DNA of 64,000 bases from positions 134,047 to 198,046 of the forward strand of contig CAYPFM010000002.1 of NCBI GenBank assembly GCA_964410185.1, given 5' to 3'. The stretch is from an uncultured Candidatus Saccharibacteria bacterium. Its GTDB lineage: Bacteria > Patescibacteriota > Saccharimonadia > Saccharimonadales > JAUPVS01. Made by a program: the position numbers and the translations under genes. Shown one piece after another: positions 1 through 42,105 of the stretch; the stretch's first letter is position 1; every line of letters starts with the position of its first letter. A model generated the notes under the pieces. It saw nothing but the letters and a program-made list of their open reading frames with translations. It did not search any database and had not been told where the DNA came from.

Positions 1-70
1 AATCCACCGCCTCCAGGTTGCGGTCTGAGGCGGGGTTTGGGAAACCCGAATGAATCGACACATCAGTCAT
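1..70 (-). CDS. 5' end (partial, runs off window) of a LexA/UmuD-like S24 peptidase family protein
   Basis: ATG at 70..68 opens MTDVSIHSGFPNPASDRNLEAVD...; the SGFPNPA-D motif resembles the N-terminal GFPSPA(A/D)D motif of UmuD-type S24 peptidases. It is absent from the ORF track because it is truncated. Confidence 0.35.
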   Translation of the reverse strand, partial: MTDVSIHSGFPNPASDRNLEAVD

Positions 71-83
71 GGTATTAGTATAC

Positions 84-133
84 CTTTTTGGTTACGGCTT
101 CGACCTCAAGGGTCTGCAGATGTAACCAAAAAG
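84..133 (+). repeat. Hairpin-repeat family, copy A: perfect 12-bp stem plus conserved apical module
   Basis: Stem 84-95 (ctttttggttac) pairs perfectly with 122-133 (gtaaccaaaaag). The loop 96-121 is ggcttcGACCtcaagGGTCtgcagat, the same module as the reverse complement of the loops at 206-230 and 31761-31784. Confidence 0.8.
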
Positions 134-179
134 CCATCCTAATACCACACCTGAGCCGCCTATTTCTGTCGCCCGGAAA

Positions 180-256
180 GTAAACCTCGTTGCTACTTTT
201 ATTGCATCTGCAGGCCGTAAGGCCGAAGCCGCAATAAAAGTAGCAACGAGGTTTAC
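180..256 (-). repeat. Hairpin-repeat family, copy B: perfect 26-bp stem plus conserved apical module; overlaps the stop codon of the response-regulator gene
   Basis: 180-205 is the exact reverse complement of 231-256. The loop read on the minus strand is ggcttcGGCCttacGGCCtgcagat. The TAA stop of CDS 253..657 lies inside the right arm. Confidence 0.85.
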
Positions 257-657
257 CGGATGCTGTCAAGGATGTTGACCAACTGGCGGGGGGTGATTTC
301 GGCTTTGATGATGTAGCCGTCGGCCTGGTGTTCGATGGCCTCGCGGGTCTCTTCTTTTTGTTCGAGGTTGGTGGTAATGATAATTTTGGCTTTGAGCGGT
401 GGCGTTTGACTGGGGTCACGGAGGCGCTTGAGTACCTCGGTACCAACCATGTTGGGGACCATTAAATCGAGCAAGATAATGTCGTATTGGTTGGTTTGAG
501 CTTCTTTGAGGCCTTCGAGGCCGTCGACCACCACTTTAATTTGGTAGCCGGCTTTATTGAGGGCCCGGGCGTAGAGTTCGCCAATAAAAAACTCGTCTTC
601 GACGCAGAGTACTTTACGGCCGGTTCGAGCTGGTTGAGAAGTTTTGTCTTGATCCAC
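253..657 (-). CDS. Response regulator, receiver domain only (CheY-like)
   Basis: 134 aa; KVLCVEDE...DIILLDLMVPNMVGTEVLKRLR has the receiver-domain acidic pocket and phospho-acceptor Asp context. It sits directly downstream of a histidine kinase. Confidence 0.85.
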   Translation of the reverse strand: MDQDKTSQPARTGRKVLCVEDEFFIGELYARALNKAGYQIKVVVDGLEGLKEAQTNQYDIILLDLMVPNMVGTEVLKRLRDPSQTPPLKAKIIITTNLEQKEETREAIEHQADGYIIKAEITPRQLVNILDSIR

Positions 658-2217: not shown

Positions 2218-3468
2218 CTACGGTTTATAGACTACGGCACCAGTGATGTTCACCAGGCTAATCCAGGTTTGTCCAGGGTTTAACTTGAGGGTATTGCCGT
2301 TACTATCTTTAAAAACGAACTGACTGGTGCGACTGTCTTTGGTCCATGTTCCTTGAGCGACGGCACCATCTTGGAAGACGTACATCGTGCCCGTACCGGT
2401 GGTCGTGTAGCTGTTGTGTGTACCGTCACTTTCCAGGGCGCTGGGAGTAACGAGGGCGATTACGACCTTGGGCGATAACTGGGCGCCAGACTTTTCGTCA
2501 GTATGAATTTTGCCACCTTCGCTGCGTTTGTAGCTATTGGTTGCAGCATCGTAGTCGTAGTGTGGGTTGTACAGATAGCTGGAAATCGCAAAATCAATGC
2601 TGGTAGCAGTTGGTGTGGCAACCTTGGCCTCGGGCTTGCGGACAAAACCAGTGAAGGTACTGCTGGTATAGCCCTTGGACTGGGCCAGCTTGTAGAGTTC
2701 GTCGATGCTGGAATAGACGTTGTGCGGTGCATAGCGCTGCGTAACACGATGGTAGGCGCTGGCGTTGGCGAACTGGTCGAGGTCTTTGACGTGCAGTTCC
2801 TTAATTTGAGCCAAAGCCGCGGGGCTACCACCGACATGGGCATACGAGGCATCGAACGGAAGTAGCCAGTCGAGATAGTACGGCCGTGAGCTGCGTATTG
2901 GGCCAATGTAGCCGGGCTGAGCCTCCTGGAAGAGCGCCAGGAAGCGCGTAATACCACCCTCGGCCACCGCTTCGTAGACAACACCGGCTTCGAGCAGGCC
3001 TGATTGTGGTCGGGCATCAGGACTGTTTTCGATCATAACCCCGGTAACGGCTCGTTTGTTCATCTCGGGCGGAACTTGTAACCCGGTCAGATTGGAGGGT
3101 TCGGTGGTTGGCTTAGTCTCGACCACAGCGGTTTTCTTAACAACTACGACTGCTTTTGGCTTGTGGGTCTGCTTGTAGGCGTAGACTCCCCCACCAATCA
3201 AGGCTAGCAGTAAGACCACCAAGAGGCCGGTAAATAATCGTTTCTTGCGCTTTGACCACGCTGTTGGCCAGATGTGAAACTTACGCTGCTTCTTGGGCGC
3301 CGCAGGTTTAGCTGGCTTGGGGGGCTTTGGCTCAATCGCTGGTTCTACTGGCTCCACTGTTGGCGTGGGTGGTTCAACGGGGGTTTGAACTGGTTCGCTT
3401 GGGAGCTCGGGCATCTTTTTATTTTTGGAGCCTTTTTTGGGCGCCGCAAAGTCGTTAATCATAAGCAA
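2218..3468 (-). CDS. DUF3048-family secreted/membrane-anchored protein (YerB-like)
   Basis: 416 aa; Pro/Lys-rich N-terminus, one TM, then GVMIENSPDARPQSGL..GITRFLALFQ, typical of DUF3048. Confidence 0.6.
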   Translation of the reverse strand: MLMINDFAAPKKGSKNKKMPELPSEPVQTPVEPPTPTVEPVEPAIEPKPPKPAKPAAPKKQRKFHIWPTAWSKRKKRLFTGLLVVLLLALIGGGVYAYKQTHKPKAVVVVKKTAVVETKPTTEPSNLTGLQVPPEMNKRAVTGVMIENSPDARPQSGLLEAGVVYEAVAEGGITRFLALFQEAQPGYIGPIRSSRPYYLDWLLPFDASYAHVGGSPAALAQIKELHVKDLDQFANASAYHRVTQRYAPHNVYSSIDELYKLAQSKGYTSSTFTGFVRKPEAKVATPTATSIDFAISSYLYNPHYDYDAATNSYKRSEGGKIHTDEKSGAQLSPKVVIALVTPSALESDGTHNSYTTTGTGTMYVFQDGAVAQGTWTKDSRTSQFVFKDSNGNTLKLNPGQTWISLVNITGAVVYKP

Positions 3469-3545
3469 TATTGTAGCAGGTGGGCCTCTGTTTCTAAAGC
3501 CCTTGCCCCACAGACCGCCCAGAGGAAAGAGGCCTTTTGGTGCTG

Positions 3546-9236: not shown

Positions 9237-9382
9237 GTTTTCGCCTGCTATGGTTTTTGGAGCATGACTTAACGAGTTTTTAAGAATTCAGATTAACTAA
9301 GTTAAGAACATTCTGAAGTTATTTAATCTGAATTCTTACCTTTTGGTTAAATGGTGCTCCAAAATTCATAGCACGCAAAAAC
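9237..9382. repeat. 146-nt AT-rich imperfect palindrome (60-nt arms, 26-nt centre), MITE/foldback-like or long-hairpin RNA
   Basis: Arm 9237-9296 matches the reverse complement of 9323-9382 at 47/60 positions by my alignment. The inner 16 nt (taagaattcagattaa / ttaatctgaattctta) are perfect. Confidence 0.75.
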
Positions 9383-16636: not shown

Positions 16637-16758
16637 AGAAGTGAGATTCATTCTCCGCCAATACCCAGAGGTATTGGCTTCCGAACTCTACTCACTTCTT
16701 CCTCTAGCTTTTCCAAACAGTCGAGGCGAATGAATCGCCTCCTTGGTTTGGAAAAGCT
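16637..16758. promoter_or_regulatory. Two nested hairpins in the tRNA-Ser / ABC-transporter divergent intergenic region
   Basis: Hairpin 1: 16637-45/16691-99 (9 bp) enclosing 16657-64/16671-78 (8 bp). Hairpin 2: 16706-18/16746-58 (13 bp) enclosing 16723-29/16735-41 (7 bp). In addition, 16645-53 is the exact complement of 16728-36. Confidence 0.5.
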
Positions 16759-30603: not shown

Positions 30604-31187
30604 ACAAGCCCATTATCGTCGATAGAACTCAACCAAACTCGTATATAACGGCGTTGATGAAGTACCTTCAGTCAGGGTCCCTGCTAGACTTGGGTGCTGG
30701 GCATGGTCGCCATGCAATCTATTTTGCACAACAGGGTTTTGTTGTTACCGCAGCCGAGCCAGTTACAGAGTATTGTGACGAAATCATAAACAAGGCCACA
30801 CACGCCAATGTAGTTGTTCAAGTCATCCAGGACGACATCAAATCCTTTCCTGTTGACGCAAAGTTTGATGCCGTCGTTTGTGCCATGGTTCTTCACTTCT
30901 TAGAGTACCAAGAAGCAAAGCAAGCTGTTACCAAGATGCAAAACCTGACGAACACAGGCGGTTGCAATGTTATTTCCGCCTACACCAGTAAAAATACCGG
31001 TGACTTTATGAAGGGTAATCCCTATGGTAGCCAGAAATACCTGCTCAAGCCGGGCGAACTAAAGGAGCAATACAAAGACTGGGAGATTCTAGAGTACTCC
31101 GAAGCCTGGACGCCTCCCGGGATTATCAATCTGGGCGACGTGCCAACCAGCTACCACAAGGTTAATATGATTGCCCGTAAACCCTAG
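30600..31187 (+). CDS. Class I SAM-dependent methyltransferase (TehB-like)
   Basis: 195 aa; LLDLGAGHGRHAIYFAQQGFVVTAAEP (motif I) and FDAVVCAMVLHFL. Confidence 0.8.
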   Translation: MNKPIIVDRTQPNSYITALMKYLQSGSLLDLGAGHGRHAIYFAQQGFVVTAAEPVTEYCDEIINKATHANVVVQVIQDDIKSFPVDAKFDAVVCAMVLHFLEYQEAKQAVTKMQNLTNTGGCNVISAYTSKNTGDFMKGNPYGSQKYLLKPGELKEQYKDWEILEYSEAWTPPGIINLGDVPTSYHKVNMIARKP

Positions 31188-31693
31188 TTATTTGTCTGTA
31201 AAGCCGTCATGATGTGATCGTATTCGGCTTGAGTGGTAAGTTCGTCTGCTTTCAGGCTGGCAGTATCACGCCAAACATATTCACTGACCTCATCGTTGGG
31301 GGCAAAATCACGATGAGCGAGCCTAGCACGCATAATCACGCCGACCAGCTGTCTTTCGTTACCCTCTTGCTTATGAAAGATAAGTCGACTGCCACCATAA
31401 CTAAAAGCGCCGTATTCCGAAGGCTTCATACCAAGCTCCTCTTGAATTTCTCGTTGCAAAGCTTCTTCTAGGGTTTCTCCCATATCCACAAAGCCGCCGG
31501 GCAAGTTCAGTTTGCCCTTTTCGGGTTCTTGGTTTCTTCGTCCCAGTAAGATCTTGCCATGATTATCTACAAACAGCGCATCGATTACCGGGATAGGATT
31601 AGCATAGTGATGGCGCCTGCAACCTGGGCAAAACCAAACAAGCCTTTCCTGGCGAACCTGAAGCTTAGTCCCGCAACCTGGGCAATAGTCCAT
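31184..31693 (-). CDS. NUDIX hydrolase with N-terminal zinc ribbon (NudC-like)
   Basis: 169 aa; CPGCGTKL...CPGCRRHHY, then the Nudix box GGFVDMGETLEEALQREIQEELG. Confidence 0.85.
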   Translation of the reverse strand: MDYCPGCGTKLQVRQERLVWFCPGCRRHHYANPIPVIDALFVDNHGKILLGRRNQEPEKGKLNLPGGFVDMGETLEEALQREIQEELGMKPSEYGAFSYGGSRLIFHKQEGNERQLVGVIMRARLAHRDFAPNDEVSEYVWRDTASLKADELTTQAEYDHIMTALQTNN

Positions 31694-31735
31694 TCCCCAA
31701 GTATAGCAAATTCAGCCCGGGACTTGCCCGCTGCT

Positions 31736-31809
31736 GGTTTTGTATGAAGCTAAGCATTGCATCTGCAGGCCGCAGGCCGAAGCCGCAATGCGAAGCTTTG
31801 TACAAAACC
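31736..31809 (-). repeat. Hairpin-repeat family, copy C: 25-nt arms (21 paired) plus conserved apical module; abuts stop codon of CDS 31809..
   Basis: Arms 31736-60 / 31785-809. The loop on the minus strand is ggcttcGGCCtgcGGCCtgcagat. The loop and 5 closing bp (attgc/gcaat) are near-identical to copy B, but the rest of the stem is unrelated. Confidence 0.8.
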
Positions 31810-32057
31810 TAGCAAGCAGGCCGAGTACCAACTAACATCCACTCATCATTCTCATTCCTCAACCGGTACGTCGTTGTCCCATCGGTCATGTCGAACAAGC
31901 GGACGACGCGTTCGCCACTCTTTACCAAGTACTGAAAGCCATCCTTAAAAGTGCAGCGAGTGGTGCCAAACTCAATTTCTCGAGGGAAGCTGCGGAACTC
32001 GCGGCCACGGTGAAAGCTGAAAGAAGTAACGTTAACGATGCTATTGATTAATTCCAT
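31809..32057 (-). CDS. Hypothetical 82-aa protein (in-frame ORF continues upstream to 32552)
   Basis: ATG 32057 is preceded by AGGAG at an 8-nt spacing: MELINSIVNVTSFSFHRGREF... The longer 247-aa frame has no other ATG and overlaps the start of the CHASE gene. Confidence 0.45.
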   Translation of the reverse strand: MELINSIVNVTSFSFHRGREFRSFPREIEFGTTRCTFKDGFQYLVKSGERVVRLFDMTDGTTTYRLRNENDEWMLVGTRPAC

Positions 32058-32381
32058 ATCTAAACTCCTGTAATATTCTTGATAATTATTAAGAACAGTT
32101 AACGGGTTTTGGAGTGGAGTTGCCTGGCTAAAAGCAGTCACCGTTTTGACGACTTTTGTAGCACCGAGGAAACTAATTTGTTTAGATATGAGGCGCCCAG
32201 GGACGATTAGATGACTAAAGGTTTGGTTGCCGAATGTAAGTCTGTACGGAGGAAGTCCAACAAGTTGGCCAGCCCGCACATGACTATCCACAGTATAGTC
32301 CAACCATAAGCACTTGAGAACCCCAAAATGCTTAACGTTTGCTATAATATGTAAAGATACTAACACTAACCAAAGATACCT

Positions 32382-33488
32382 GTGGAAACAAGACTGCTCC
32401 GCCCCAAATTCAAGTTGCTCAGCATTGTATCTTTTTTGATATTGATTGCCATTGCCATTGGTACGCTGTGGCTGAGCCAGGTTGCAGCCAGTGCGGTACG
32501 ACAAAAGAATGCTAACCAGTTTGCTTGGGATAGTCACATTATCAGTAATCACCTCCAGAACAACCTTGAGGGGTACAGCAACGCACTGTATGGTGGCCGG
32601 GCCTTTATTCTGAACAGTAATGTTGTGACATCTGCCGAGTGGACTGGTTATTACCGCAATCAGGACATCTTCAACCGGTTAAACGGTCTTAACAGCATCT
32701 CCTATATCCAGCTCGTACCGGCGGCAAGCGTTGACCAGTTTGTGGCTCAAAAGCGGCAGCAACCGGAAATTGGCCCCAGCTATACGGTCAGCCCGGCTGG
32801 TAGCCGTGGAGTTTATGCCTTGGGAGCGTTGGCGGTTGGCGCGACCGATAACCTCAAGCCGAATGGTTTCGATGTCTACTCAACTCCTGATAGGCGCGCC
32901 GTCTATCAGTTGGCTCAAGATACTGGTTTACCGGCTGCTTCCGGCGAAACAAACTTTACTGATGGCAATAAGGGAATGTTCATCGCCCTGGCACTTAATC
33001 GCGAAGGTGCGACGGCTGGGTACGTGGTTGCGGCGGTACACAGCAACAATTTCTTCTCGACGGTTATCGACGAGACGACTCTTGGAGTGGTGAGCGCCAG
33101 GGTGATTGATGTCACCGACTCCAAAAAGCCCAACATGCTCTATTCGACCGCTAAATGGAATGATCATTCCAACGGCATGAGCCGAACGGACAAGATCACC
33201 TTTGCGGGCCGTCAGTGGAAGGTTGAATATCAGGCGCCCAAGAACTACACCCACCATTTGATCTCTACAGTCCTTCCCTATGTTGTTTTGTTCTGTGGGC
33301 TACTGTTGATATCATCACTAGGAATGATGTTCTACATCTTCTTCAAGACTGTGCCAATCTCGAAGCTACAGTTTGCACCAGGCGAAGAAAAGGGCAAGCC
33401 CCACTCTGGCGTGAAGACCAAGTCAACCGCCAAAGCCAGCGATCCGCACCACATTGTGGTGACCACCAATGTCGATCTTGACCCCTAG
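32382..33488 (+). CDS. CHASE-domain membrane protein without recognisable output domain
   Basis: 368 aa (GTG start); TM, then a periplasmic region FAWDSHIISNHLQNNLEGYSNALYGGRAFILNSNVVTSAEWTGYY...SISYIQLVP (CHASE-like), a second TM and a short K-rich tail. Confidence 0.55.
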   Translation: METRLLRPKFKLLSIVSFLILIAIAIGTLWLSQVAASAVRQKNANQFAWDSHIISNHLQNNLEGYSNALYGGRAFILNSNVVTSAEWTGYYRNQDIFNRLNGLNSISYIQLVPAASVDQFVAQKRQQPEIGPSYTVSPAGSRGVYALGALAVGATDNLKPNGFDVYSTPDRRAVYQLAQDTGLPAASGETNFTDGNKGMFIALALNREGATAGYVVAAVHSNNFFSTVIDETTLGVVSARVIDVTDSKKPNMLYSTAKWNDHSNGMSRTDKITFAGRQWKVEYQAPKNYTHHLISTVLPYVVLFCGLLLISSLGMMFYIFFKTVPISKLQFAPGEEKGKPHSGVKTKSTAKASDPHHIVVTTNVDLDP

Positions 33489-39292: not shown

Positions 39293-41395
39293 CTAGAAGG
39301 TTCCCGAGTAGCGGTTATTAAGAATCATATGCGGCATAAAAATGGCTGTGGCGTTGTTGCGGTTAACAGCGTTTGAAGCGATAGTAGCCGGCATGCTTGA
39401 CCGGGTGGCAGTAAACATGGCGTTCCAGTAGTTACCGTGCGCTAACGAGGTGTTGGTTGCTACGGTCGTGCCAATACTGCCACTCCGTTGGAGTGAGTGC
39501 ATAAAGTTCTGGCCGATGTACGACATGGGTGGCCCATAGTTGGAAGAGTTGAAGATAACCCCCACAACGTAGTCGTTACCAGAGGAAAAATTAGGGGCAC
39601 TTGACCATTGGCTGGACACGAACGACAGCCAGCGCGGGCCATGATAGTTGGCGGTATTACTGGTAGCAGCCGTAAAACCCCAGGTTGTTGTTGCCGAGTT
39701 GATAAGAGTCAGCCGAGTACTTTCGTCGAGATAGATACCCAGGCTGACGGTAATGCTATGCGAGCTGCTAAGAGATGTTGCCGTCATGTTGGCTGTCATA
39801 TTAAGTAAGAAAGTATTGGCAGTTATGTCATGGCCAAATTCATTGTTTTCTTGATTGAACCGTTGCAGCATCAGTGTGCGATGGGCAGTTGCCAGCGAGG
39901 CCGAAGTACCGCGATCCATATTCTGATAGAAGTCGAGGACATTGCCACCACCACCAGCAGGTGCTGAAGCGGTAACCGTAGAGCCGGTCAGCCCCATGGT
40001 TATGTTGCCCGACCCGTTGGAGTTACCGGCCCAGAGAATTGGCATGGTGCTATCGGCGGTCGAGTTGGTGAATTGTGCGGAGTTGTATCCGTCAGCCGCA
40101 CCACCGCCTGCAGGAACGGAAATGACGACACTGCCGTTGCTGGCGCCAACCGAGGCAATGCCAGCCCCTGCAAACGACAATGACCGGGCATCAACGGTGG
40201 CTGATGTACTCTGGGTCGTATTACTGTTGGCATACAAGCCAACTGTCTGGTTGCTCTGCGCTGCCACCGATACGGAGATTGAGTTGGAAGCAATCGTGCC
40301 CGAAGCATTGGTGCCATTAAAGCCAGCCGTGGCTTGCACATAGTTGGTGCTGGCGTTAGAGCCGAGGTAGGAAGTGTTGACGCTGCCCGAGATATTCTGG
40401 CCGTTAAAACTCCAACTGACACCGTTGGCGTTTACAAAGCTGGCCGTTCCACTAGTGATGCTGTTGTTGCTACCAGAAAGAACCACGCCAGCTCCACCGG
40501 CGCCACCAGAAATCGTGACGGCGTTACCGTTCTGTGACAGCGTAATGTTGTTGCCACCGGCCAAAGACAACGTGCCGGAACTAATCTGAGCCATGACACC
40601 AGCAGTGTTACCGCTGAGTGTAACGTTGTGGAGGTTCTGGGTTTGGACGGTTTGGTTAGCGGCCGAAATAGTGATGGTTGAGGCGTTGTTGCCGACGGTG
40701 ACATTATTGCCACCAGAAATCGACACAGCGCCCTGGGTGCCGTTGACGGTCATGAGGTTCTGGGTTTGGACGGTTTGGTTAGCGGCCGAAACAGTGATGG
40801 TGTTCCCTCCAGCCCCGGTTGATTGGCTCAGGGTGACGTTGTTGCCACCAGCAAAAACTATCTGGTTACTGGCCGTGCCGCTGGTTCCAACGCTGTTGCC
40901 AATGTTGCTGACGCCGCCACGGAACATGTTCGGGCCGCTGATGCTAACAGTTTGCCAAGAGCCAAACAAGGCGTCGGTACCGGTGGCGTTAGACAGGGTA
41001 ATGTTGTTGCCGCCGGCAAGGTAGAGGCTTTTGTTGGCCAGAAAATTACCATCACCAGAGGTGTTGCCGCCCGACATGCCGGCACTTAAGGCGTATAGGC
41101 TAGGAGCATTTACCGAAATAGTATTGGAGCTTTGCGATACGTAGAGGTTGTTGAAGTAAAAACGAGCTTCGTTGGAGCTAATGGTGTTTAGGGTACCAAA
41201 GGTAAGGTTGCCGCTCACGCCGATAGTCGGCGCCATACCGGAAACGGTAATGGCGTTTCCGTTCTGGGATAGCGTAATATTGTTGCCGCCAGCCAGCGTT
41301 ACGGTACCAGTAGAGGCTAGCGCACCGGCACCAGCGGTGTTGCCGCCGATGGTCGCGTTAATTCGCCCTCCGTTTAGCCCAGGTGTGTATGCCAT
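39293..41395 (-). CDS. 700-aa G/N/S/T-rich repeat protein (beta-helix/fibre-like), no signal peptide
   Basis: Recurrent (L/F)AGGNN(I/V)TLSQ..GN.(I/V)T(V/I)S(G/A) and SAANQTVQTQNL units, plus a distinct ~230-aa C-terminal domain. I count about 33 N-x-S/T tripeptides by eye. Confidence 0.6.
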   Translation of the reverse strand: MAYTPGLNGGRINATIGGNTAGAGALASTGTVTLAGGNNITLSQNGNAITVSGMAPTIGVSGNLTFGTLNTISSNEARFYFNNLYVSQSSNTISVNAPSLYALSAGMSGGNTSGDGNFLANKSLYLAGGNNITLSNATGTDALFGSWQTVSISGPNMFRGGVSNIGNSVGTSGTASNQIVFAGGNNVTLSQSTGAGGNTITVSAANQTVQTQNLMTVNGTQGAVSISGGNNVTVGNNASTITISAANQTVQTQNLHNVTLSGNTAGVMAQISSGTLSLAGGNNITLSQNGNAVTISGGAGGAGVVLSGSNNSITSGTASFVNANGVSWSFNGQNISGSVNTSYLGSNASTNYVQATAGFNGTNASGTIASNSISVSVAAQSNQTVGLYANSNTTQSTSATVDARSLSFAGAGIASVGASNGSVVISVPAGGGAADGYNSAQFTNSTADSTMPILWAGNSNGSGNITMGLTGSTVTASAPAGGGGNVLDFYQNMDRGTSASLATAHRTLMLQRFNQENNEFGHDITANTFLLNMTANMTATSLSSSHSITVSLGIYLDESTRLTLINSATTTWGFTAATSNTANYHGPRWLSFVSSQWSSAPNFSSGNDYVVGVIFNSSNYGPPMSYIGQNFMHSLQRSGSIGTTVATNTSLAHGNYWNAMFTATRSSMPATIASNAVNRNNATAIFMPHMILNNRYSGTF

Positions 41396-41397
41396 AT

Positions 41398-42105
41398 CTA
41401 GATAATATACCAGTTACTGCCGTCGGAGACGACTGTTGCCGACGTGTATTGTAGATCTAAGGTGTGTGAGGTAGCACCGTCAATGGTATCGCCACCGGAA
41501 CGAGCGATGGTGACCGTGTTGCCGCTGGCGTCCTTGCGCTTGACGTAAAAACGATAGCCCGGCGAGCCAGAAGCTGCCGGCAGCGTGATGGTGACGTTGT
41601 TGCTGCTGGCGTCCGCAATGATAACCGTATCGGTGTTAGTGATGGTATAGCTGGTGCCAGTCTTGGTAGAGGTTGCGTAGATACCCTGCCCCCAGCTTGG
41701 TAGGCCGCTCGCGACAGTAAGAACTTGGCCAGTTCCACCTATCCCTAAACGCACAAAATAACCACTGGCATCGCGGTAGTAGATATCACCGGTGGCTCCA
41801 GAGGTGTCGTCAAAAGCCGCTAACACCTTGCGGGTGGTGCTGGTGGTTTGGGTGACGTAAAAACGATCAGTTAAGAATTCAATCGCGCCGGCTTCAGGCG
41901 CAGTCATGAGGCTACCAGAGGTCAGTTTAATTGGTGCCGTTCCGGCGGCAGTCGTACCGGCGCGAACGGTTATCTTTTGGTGACCTCCGTTAACGGCATT
42001 ATCGGTGCCATCATCGTAATGTTCCTTTTTGAGGTACTGATTAATGATGTCACCCCAGGCGCCATCATCGCTGTTTACAATCGGTAATCGTTGGGGGGTA
42101 GGCAT
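41398..42105 (-). CDS. Phage tail-fibre-like protein
   Basis: 235 aa; LPIVNSDDGAWGDIINQYL, GDIYYRDASGYFVRLGIGGTGQVLTVASGLPSWG, and C-terminal VTITLPAASGSPGYRFYVKRKDASGNTVTIARSGGDTIDG...SDGSNWYI. These patterns recur in caudoviral minor tail/fibre proteins. Confidence 0.5.
   Translation of the reverse strand: MPTPQRLPIVNSDDGAWGDIINQYLKKEHYDDGTDNAVNGGHQKITVRAGTTAAGTAPIKLTSGSLMTAPEAGAIEFLTDRFYVTQTTSTTRKVLAAFDDTSGATGDIYYRDASGYFVRLGIGGTGQVLTVASGLPSWGQGIYATSTKTGTSYTITNTDTVIIADASSNNVTITLPAASGSPGYRFYVKRKDASGNTVTIARSGGDTIDGATSHTLDLQYTSATVVSDGSNWYII

Follow-up and report, generated by a model that had tools for sequence, protein, structure and literature searches.

The hairpin at positions 31736 to 31809 of the window, i.e., the whole 64-kb stretch of DNA analyzed here, begins at the stop codon of a minus-strand gene, and an earlier note on this DNA described it as the third copy (hereafter copy C) of a hairpin module that occurs twice near the start of the window (copies A and B). 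This raises the question of what such a module represents: an element of the 3' untranslated region, a terminator variant, a two-state structure, an ordinary gene-end hairpin, or a small element with a preference for inserting at gene ends. Copy C may well be a dispersed small inserted DNA hairpin, akin to REP elements and MITEs, that carries a structured recognition tip and behaves as a generic gene-end hairpin, a reading which we hold with middling confidence.

Structure of copy C and of its relatives in the window

Read in the orientation of its tip, i.e., on the plus strand, copy C consists of a 25-nt 5' arm (31736-31760; GGTTTTGTATGAAGCTAAGCATTGC), which pairs with a 25-nt 3' arm (31785-31809), and a 24-nt conserved tip (31761-31784). 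The tip is composed of AUCUGCA (31761-31767), an inner hairpin GGCC-GCA-GGCC (31768-31778) with a 3-nt apical loop (GCA), and GAAGCC (31779-31784). The last base of the 3' arm lies inside the stop codon of an 82-aa gene, and the stop-to-tip distance is 24 nt for a stem of 25 bp. The 3-nt apical loop and the outer stem with 21 of 25 positions paired and two 2x2 internal loops had been described previously, and this description is accurate for the minus strand, where the 21 pairs are of the Watson-Crick type. On the plus strand one of the 2x2 loops turns into tandem G.U, such that 23 of the 25 positions are paired (21 Watson-Crick and two G.U pairs) and a single A.A/A.G 2x2 loop is left. The folding energy of positions 31730-31815 was calculated as -47.2 kcal/mol on the plus strand (z = -7.4 versus shuffled sequences) and -42.5 kcal/mol on the minus strand (z = -5.5). 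The sequences 3' of the hairpin, CTAGCAAGC on the plus strand and AGCAGCGGG on the minus strand, hold no U-tract.

Copy B (180-256, plus strand) possesses a perfect 26-bp stem (180-205 with 231-256, 100% complementary) around a tip at 206-230, and this stem covers the TAA (253-255) of a response-regulator gene (253-657, minus strand). Copy A (63-154, minus strand) has 33-nt arms that are 82% complementary and a tip at 96-121, while its 3' arm holds the -10-like box TATACT (77-82) and the start codon ATG (68-70) of the umuD-like gene that comes next; the placement of this ATG is supported by locus L171, which shows the start of the umuD-like gene.

A search with covariance model R1 identified exactly three copies in the window, scoring 58.6 (A), 61.3 (B) and 60.3 bits (C, E = 2.8e-16), with a runner-up match of 15 bits, and copy C is thereby confirmed as the third copy of the module. 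Similarly, the pattern TCTGCAG-N6-20-CGAAGCC was found three times as compared to 0.01 expected occurrences. Neither further copies of the main type nor a second tip type (see below) were found in the window. The stems of the three copies have at most 5 bp in common, located beside the tip; for B and C these are ATTGC/GCAAT, their sole common stem sequence, and both copies have the same orientation and begin at or over stop codons (TAA 253-255 and TAG 31809-31811), all of which is in agreement with the earlier description. The inner helix reads GACC/GGUC in copy A and GGCC/GGCC in copies B and C.

A conserved, folded tip

Model R1 was built from 46 distinct aligned copies, in which the order from 5' to 3' is outer stem, A, UCUGCA, inner hairpin, GAAGCC, outer stem, the leading A being accompanied by an extra A or U in gut and rumen lineages. 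The inner hairpin starts with G, ends with C, and has a helix of 4-7 bp and a free loop of 3-5 nt. The loop nucleotides of the tip are invariant or almost so, and conservation extends beyond the tip for only about 5-12 bp of the adjoining stem. In this alignment the inner helix is paired in 99.5% of cells, with one pair occurring as G-C 31 times and as A-U 13 times, and another as C-G (43), A-U (2) or U-A (1), and the inner-helix covariation on which the earlier note relied thus survives the addition of further copies.

A predicted helix of two pairs (C-G and U-A) is constant throughout the 46-copy set. However, the tip also exists as a second type, AUCC(C)GCA...GAGGAC, found alongside the main one within the same genomes (L014:5180-5233, L026:1775-1862, L174:1160-1262, L176:1150-1270 and L177:1138-1222), and here the U-A pair of the short helix is replaced by C-G, a compensatory change which indicates that the constant core is the 3x2 internal loop, with GCA facing GA, located between two short helices. 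Covariation is thus seen in both of these small helices. The covariation of GACC/GGUC in copy A with GGCC/GGCC in copies B and C, within a single genome, points to a folded single strand, as a duplex binding site would not need it.

The tip belongs to no Rfam 15 family, and the hairpin family is uncatalogued. At the gathering threshold, a search of the whole window against Rfam 15 returned three tRNAs only, while a search around A, B and C with E-values up to 10 returned only generic miRNA-precursor hairpin models far under their thresholds; Rfam also gave no match at the tip in nine other loci, and literature searches, sequence strings included, found nothing relevant to the tip. Several known motifs were compared and dropped. 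A resemblance to the hammerhead core (CUGANGA/GAAA) did not withstand inspection, there being no three-way junction and key bases being different; the K-turn, SRP domain IV, group II domain V and the BHB motif were dropped on their loop sequences, by inspection only; and no convincing counterpart that would make the tip an rRNA internal-loop mimic was seen in Alicyclobacillus 16S or 23S rRNA.

Gene context, promoters and terminators

The 82-aa gene (31809-32057, minus strand) is preceded by AGGAG, starts with the ATG at 32057, and ends with the TAG (31809-31811) that abuts copy C. Competing gene models exist for the interval 31809-32552, i.e., a 247-aa product in the list of open reading frames and a 164-aa product in the public annotation. 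No homologues of the longer versions, including the 164-aa one, were found, and only the 82-aa version is conserved, with an 81-aa orthologue in locus L179 (L179:796-1041; gene calls in the fetched loci are rough open reading frame calls). Judged from this conservation, the true gene ending at 31809 is the 82-aa one, rather than either longer frame; it returned no Pfam hit.

On the other side of copy C, a -10-like TATACT (31700-31705, minus strand) is located 30 nt beyond the hairpin and 6 nt upstream of the ATG of a NUDIX gene (31184-31693). The arrangement of -10 box, 6 nt and ATG recurs in relatives, pointing to a putative promoter, and a simple promoter-consensus scan returned no full promoter in the 31700-31705 region. 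Comparable minus-strand boxes precede the umuD-like gene (TATACT, 77-82) and the DUF3048 gene (TACAAT, 3470-3475). The position of these boxes 6-7 nt before the ATG, with no Shine-Dalgarno sequence and with the same layout in relatives, suggests leaderless mRNAs whose promoters are packed into spacers of 27-30 nt.

Family copies are intergenic, mostly situated straight after a stop codon and often between convergent genes. Among the CPR copies, 13 abut an opposite-strand stop codon only and three a same-strand stop codon only (our own tally), while in Clostridia the orientation of the tip relative to the genes is mixed. Copies C and B and the L176 copy are antisense to the preceding gene, whereas those in the rRNA spacer of Alicyclobacillus and in the priA-def and gltX spacers are in sense orientation, which speaks against a dedicated, strand-specific version of the 3'-UTR role that had been suggested for the module. 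The ratio of G.U to A.C oppositions in the stems (34:21 in CPR and 23:20 in Clostridia) shows no more than a weak strand bias. No protein family recurs beside the copies in 39 loci, where no transposase or other partner was identified, and no integrase was found among the neighbouring genes scanned.

The suggestion that copy C is a terminator variant is likewise not borne out, as it lacks a U-tract and does not conform to the terminator consensus, for which no site was found in 31400-32200 or at copies A and B. Terminator features do occur in some relatives, e.g., L062 and L075, and the stem base in copies of Paceibacterota and some Clostridia is rich in GC and flanked by runs of A and T, resembling a bidirectional terminator.

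Other hairpins and repeats were observed in the window. Positions 9237-9382, directly downstream of a tRNA-Leu gene and its canonical terminator, form a 146-nt AT-rich palindrome with 72-nt arms (78% complementary), a 2-nt centre and no conserved tip. A 24-bp hairpin (83% complementary, 5-nt loop) at 16706-16758 adjoins a tRNA-Ser gene and carries no tip module, from which it follows that long gene-end hairpins also exist without the module. Elsewhere, L105:1-115 and L097:1240-1410, both likely from Saccharibacteria, have, upstream of def, long AT-rich hairpins whose GC-rich structured tips are of another kind; the combination of a structured tip and a long stem may be more widespread in the phylum of Saccharibacteria. 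Finally, positions 40450-41620 hold several short direct-repeat families, e.g., GACAGCGTAATGTTGTTGCCACCGGC in four copies, and a 48-nt pair at 98% identity; the 700-aa open reading frame that contains these repeats (39293-41395) probably encodes a repeat-domain surface protein.

Persistence, gain and loss at orthologous loci

An orthologue of copy C was found in L179, which derives from a metagenome sample that also yielded L176, the kinase of which is 76% identical to that of the window. In L179 the hairpin is located directly after the 81-aa gene in the same orientation and scores 40 bits. Relative to copy C, its 25-bp stem exhibits five compensatory double changes with the tandem G.U and the A.A/A.G loop kept, and the AUCUGCA and GAAGCC loops are unchanged around a remodelled inner hairpin. 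An orthologue with compensatory changes of this kind indicates that copy C is old and has been inherited vertically.

The synteny of gltX and the DUF3048, kinase, response-regulator, umuD-like and dinB-like genes is kept in five relatives. The spacer between the response-regulator and umuD-like genes, which in the window measures about 180 nt and holds B and A, is empty in L177 (27 nt) and L178 (30 nt), where the stop codon is followed by approximately 15-18 nt, TACAAT, 6 nt and the ATG. In L176 this spacer (90 nt) contains one tip hairpin oriented like B, and in L174 (199 nt) it contains unrelated sequence with no tip. The empty spacers of L177 and L178 identify A and B as insertions. The comparison of orthologous regions proposed in the earlier note, in which mobility would leave empty sites, showed such sites for A and B and vertical conservation for copy C itself. 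The proposed insertion-site preference for gene ends fits both the empty spacers of relatives and the location of most copies straight after stop codons.

In the priA-def spacer, one hairpin is common to three Saccharimonadales genomes, and its region is identical but for one flanking base in two genomes whose flanks are 75% identical. In more distant relatives this spacer mostly measures 30-60 nt and has no hairpin, while two carry unrelated long hairpins. Locus L026 has an extra hairpin that is missing from the 90%-identical L029 and is flanked by a 4-nt AGCG direct repeat, the one candidate target-site duplication; other filled and empty pairs are too diverged to define junctions.

Two further copies are located after the NUDIX gene of L179 (L179:2043-2091 and L179:2125-2175), and their tips and proximal 9-12 bp match those of window copies A (GCTTTTTGNTAC...) and B (TTTTATTGC...), at a different locus. 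The recurrence of the tip with 9-12 bp at a non-orthologous site implies that the moving unit seems to be the tip with about 10 bp of stem.

Origin of the long stems

As the stems are unrelated at most loci, transposition of whole hairpins cannot be general. In copy A the distal half of the 3' arm carries TATACT and ATG spaced as in the empty relatives, and this ancestral spacing indicates that the 3' arm is the ancestral sequence and the opposite arm its imperfect inverted copy. The spacer between gltX and the DUF3048 gene carries long hairpins with the second tip type in L174, L176 and L177, while the window has a half-hairpin at this location (3463-3545, minus strand), homologous to the 3' arm of these relatives only, with the tip and 5' arm absent. 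The window spacer fits the gain of a hairpin via inverted duplication of its flank, the alternative being that the tip and one arm have been deleted.

Quasi-palindromes are well established as sites of template switching, a process that can turn an imperfect inverted repeat into a perfect one in a single event. Applied here, it would explain such conversions as well as the perfect 26-bp stem of copy B. With regard to stem arms serving as anti-phage guides, 20-21-nt segments of A and B gave no exact match to viral contigs.

Distribution across bacteria

The window itself is from a Saccharimonadales bacterium, the name borne by homologues of its histidine kinase at 72% identity. In other genomes, 57 matches to the family were found in 39 loci. 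A scan with the exact pattern was performed on one genome per species, and the copy numbers obtained are lower bounds. The tip with palindromic flanks was found in several Saccharimonadales/Saccharibacteria and Paceibacterota MAGs, in Clostridia (Eubacterium sp. UBA3782, with at least 14 tip loci, Frisingicoccus, a Lachnospiraceae MAG and the isolate Anaerostipes butyraticus), in three Spirochaetes MAGs and in six Alicyclobacillus species. Exact-pattern matches in coding sequences of high-GC genomes are due to chance and lack any palindrome. The taxon labels of MAG contigs may include binning errors; presence in at least Bacillota and Patescibacteria is supported by isolates (Alicyclobacillus, Anaerostipes) and multiple independent MAGs. 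No family member was found in 82 other loci, including some 20 priA-def loci that are probably from Saccharibacteria, given that their Def is 55-72% identical to the Saccharimonadales query. The distribution of the family is thus patchy and extends across phyla.

The tip form with the extra A is shared by Clostridia of the gut or rumen, a Spirochaete and a Saccharibacteria MAG; in our reading the tip subtypes track habitat rather than phylogeny, which suggests horizontal transfer. The exact pattern had no match in 2.9 million viral contigs (IMG/VR), and the phage and plasmid collections INPHARED and PLSDB contained no true copies and weak partial matches only.

In the Alicyclobacillus rRNA operons examined, the tip hairpin is located in the 23S-5S spacer and lies on the same strand as the rRNA; for example, the A. 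fastidiosus copy at L021:7759-7835 takes up much of a 154-nt 23S-5S spacer. Rfam confirmed the 23S and 5S context in two A. fastidiosus operons, other matches in this species having the same flanks, and confirmed the adjacent 5S gene in A. sacchari and A. tengchongensis. This hairpin may be an rRNA processing site or a tolerated insertion. In Clostridia, tip hairpins also form tandem arrays, i.e., L079:6039-6360 and L059:4950-5270, with periods of 116 nt and about 90 nt. The middle unit of the L079 array has mismatched arms, each derived from one neighbour, as is expected from unequal crossing-over between tips.

Interpretation and alternatives

If copy C is a mobile hairpin, as we favor, its conserved tip would comprise an A, a short helix (C-G, then U-A), the 3x2 loop (GCA/GA), a mini-hairpin of 4-7 bp and CC, and in folded form would serve as the recognition structure of a putative trans-acting factor that copies or moves the element. 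We presume that single-stranded DNA is the recognized form, given that conserved copies are found pointing both along and against the direction of transcription. The element would land in short intergenic spacers, typically past a stop codon and ahead of the next promoter, its stem would be lengthened as one of the arms is built as, or converted into, an inverted copy of adjacent sequence, and long vertical inheritance with compensatory stem changes would follow. Transcripts crossing it would carry a very stable gene-end hairpin, a putative transcription barrier or 3'-end protector in either orientation.

A different possibility, less likely in our view yet to be taken seriously, is that the hairpin is a cis-acting RNA of the host, i.e., a terminator, insulator or 3'-end stabilizer, whose tip binds a host protein and whose spread and turnover are secondary. 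Such a role would account for copies being positioned straight after stop codons and often between convergent genes, for the GC-rich bases with A- and T-runs in Paceibacterota and Clostridia, and for the A. fructus copy (L077:704-778), in which the tip is the loop of an 18-bp GC-rich stem. It is also favored by the finding that the hairpins are better conserved than their flanks with compensatory stem changes, and by a G.U to A.C ratio of 13:2 in sense-oriented CPR copies (our own tally). Moreover, the tip loops are conserved in place across species, which a purely selfish element would not need and which hints at a role at the level of the host or of RNA. Against this role, the asymmetric tip is fixed in sense orientation to the preceding gene in some conserved copies and in antisense orientation in others, and a single strand-specific RNA function of the tip is thus hard to sustain; furthermore, copies A, B and C have no U-tract and fall outside the terminator consensus, a copy between 23S and 5S rRNA cannot terminate efficiently, and many relatives manage with hairpin-free spacers of 27-30 nt.

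Small self-cleaving ribozymes have a patchy and multicopy distribution, and two covarying helices about a strictly conserved asymmetric loop, present in multiple copies, in tandem arrays and patchily across phyla, would likewise suit a small catalytic or ligand-binding RNA, e.g., a new minimal self-cleaving ribozyme, for which the stem would be a mere scaffold. We regard this as improbable, even though the layout is like that of the twister-sister-like 'lantern' ribozymes (PMC11620745) and the spacer holding the Alicyclobacillus copy has to be processed in the pre-rRNA: the loops are (A)UCUGCA/GAAGCC here as opposed to GCUCAA/GCUAG, no Rfam ribozyme model matches with E-values up to 10, transcription would yield the reverse complement for about half of the copies, and cleavage within the tip of a 3'-end hairpin has no obvious use. 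Still less credible is the two-state element proposed in the earlier note, in which a minus-strand GGC-UUCG-GCC hairpin competes with the GGCC-loop-GGCC helix. This alternative can be drawn for B and C, yet in the partition function its pair probabilities are below 1% (0.0046-0.0076 in C and 0 in B) as compared to 0.96-0.99 for pairing in the inner helix. Neither copy A nor the 13 of 46 family members with GACC/GGUC can form the alternative hairpin, and covariation backs the inner helix only. Chance likeness among ordinary gene-end hairpins can draw on nothing more than the commonness of hairpins after genes, and is practically negligible in view of three occurrences versus 0.01 expected, scores of approximately 60 bits, and the same tip in dozens of loci of other phyla.

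Returning to the mobile hairpin, a more far-reaching version, which we put forward as speculative and rather doubtful, holds that the tip is the recognition hairpin of an undescribed palindrome-seeding mobility mechanism, or else a new RNA motif (ribozyme or protein-binding) of Patescibacteria, Bacillota and Spirochaetota. In palindrome seeding, a single-stranded DNA (or RNA) hairpin of roughly 45-50 nt would insert after stop codons and convert the flanks to an inverted repeat. Known extragenic palindromic repeats conserve the stem, whereas here a 25-nt tip is conserved near letter for letter across phyla and the stems are local, part of them apparently derived from adjacent sequence. If so, this would represent an unrecognized route for the spread and growth of small hairpins in compact genomes, e.g., those of Saccharibacteria, whose short spacers with their promoters and gene ends would be reshaped in the process; under the other option, the tip would be a widespread RNA or DNA recognition motif. 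Cultured carriers, i.e., Alicyclobacillus species and Anaerostipes butyraticus, allow direct tests, and the family is a candidate new entry for Rfam or for repeat annotation.

Comparison with known systems

The conservation of this family at the tip sets it apart from integron attC sites, whose R''/L'' and L'/R' boxes at the stem base have no counterpart here. In the minimal twister-sister-like 'lantern' ribozymes (PMC11620745), too, two helices surround a conserved asymmetric loop, which measures about 6 + 5 nt and includes C-G and U-A pairs as well as an A.G pair. Their loop sequences, GCUCAA/GCUAG as reconstructed from residue numbers in the text of that paper, differ from those of the tip at about half of the positions, and the L1 loop sequence, with its C-A cleavage dinucleotide, is not matched by AUCUGCA/GAAGCC. 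Intrinsic terminators are also located after stop codons and between convergent genes, and some family members have their GC-rich base and A- and T-runs. However, the window copies lack the U-tract, and with stems of 25-33 bp they depart from the 5-12 bp GC-rich stem and short loop of a terminator; terminators, moreover, do not possess a 25-nt tip that is conserved from phylum to phylum, and in one lineage a copy lies inside an rRNA operon.

Quasi-palindrome template switching, in which one arm is copied from the other, fits the perfect stem of copy B and the flank-derived arm of copy A. It is a mutational process rather than an element family, however, and leaves the origin and conservation of the tip unexplained. 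MITEs and similar hairpin-forming bacterial repeats, e.g., ERIC, Correia, RUP and BOX, are small, non-autonomous intergenic insertions with long RNA or DNA hairpins and presence/absence variation, as are the elements described here, but MITEs have conserved terminal inverted repeats, defined target-site duplications and homology over the whole copy, whereas the outer stem ends of this family are not conserved and differ at every locus.

REP/REPIN elements are mobilized by RAYT Y1-HUH transposases; no RAYT gene was seen here, in the 64 kb of genome covered. REP elements conserve their stem together with a 5' GTAG-type head and leave the loop free, while in this family no such head or conserved stem is present, conservation being confined to the tip and stems of 20-35 bp being locus-specific; REP families are furthermore lineage-specific, whereas the tip family crosses phyla. 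In other respects the two are alike, both being short, extragenic, multicopy hairpins that are situated after genes or between convergent genes, in both orientations and in adjacent pairs (here A with B, the L179 pair and the arrays). Like REP elements, for which side effects on termination and mRNA stability have been proposed, the hairpins described here would be recognized as folded single strands and persist vertically over long periods.
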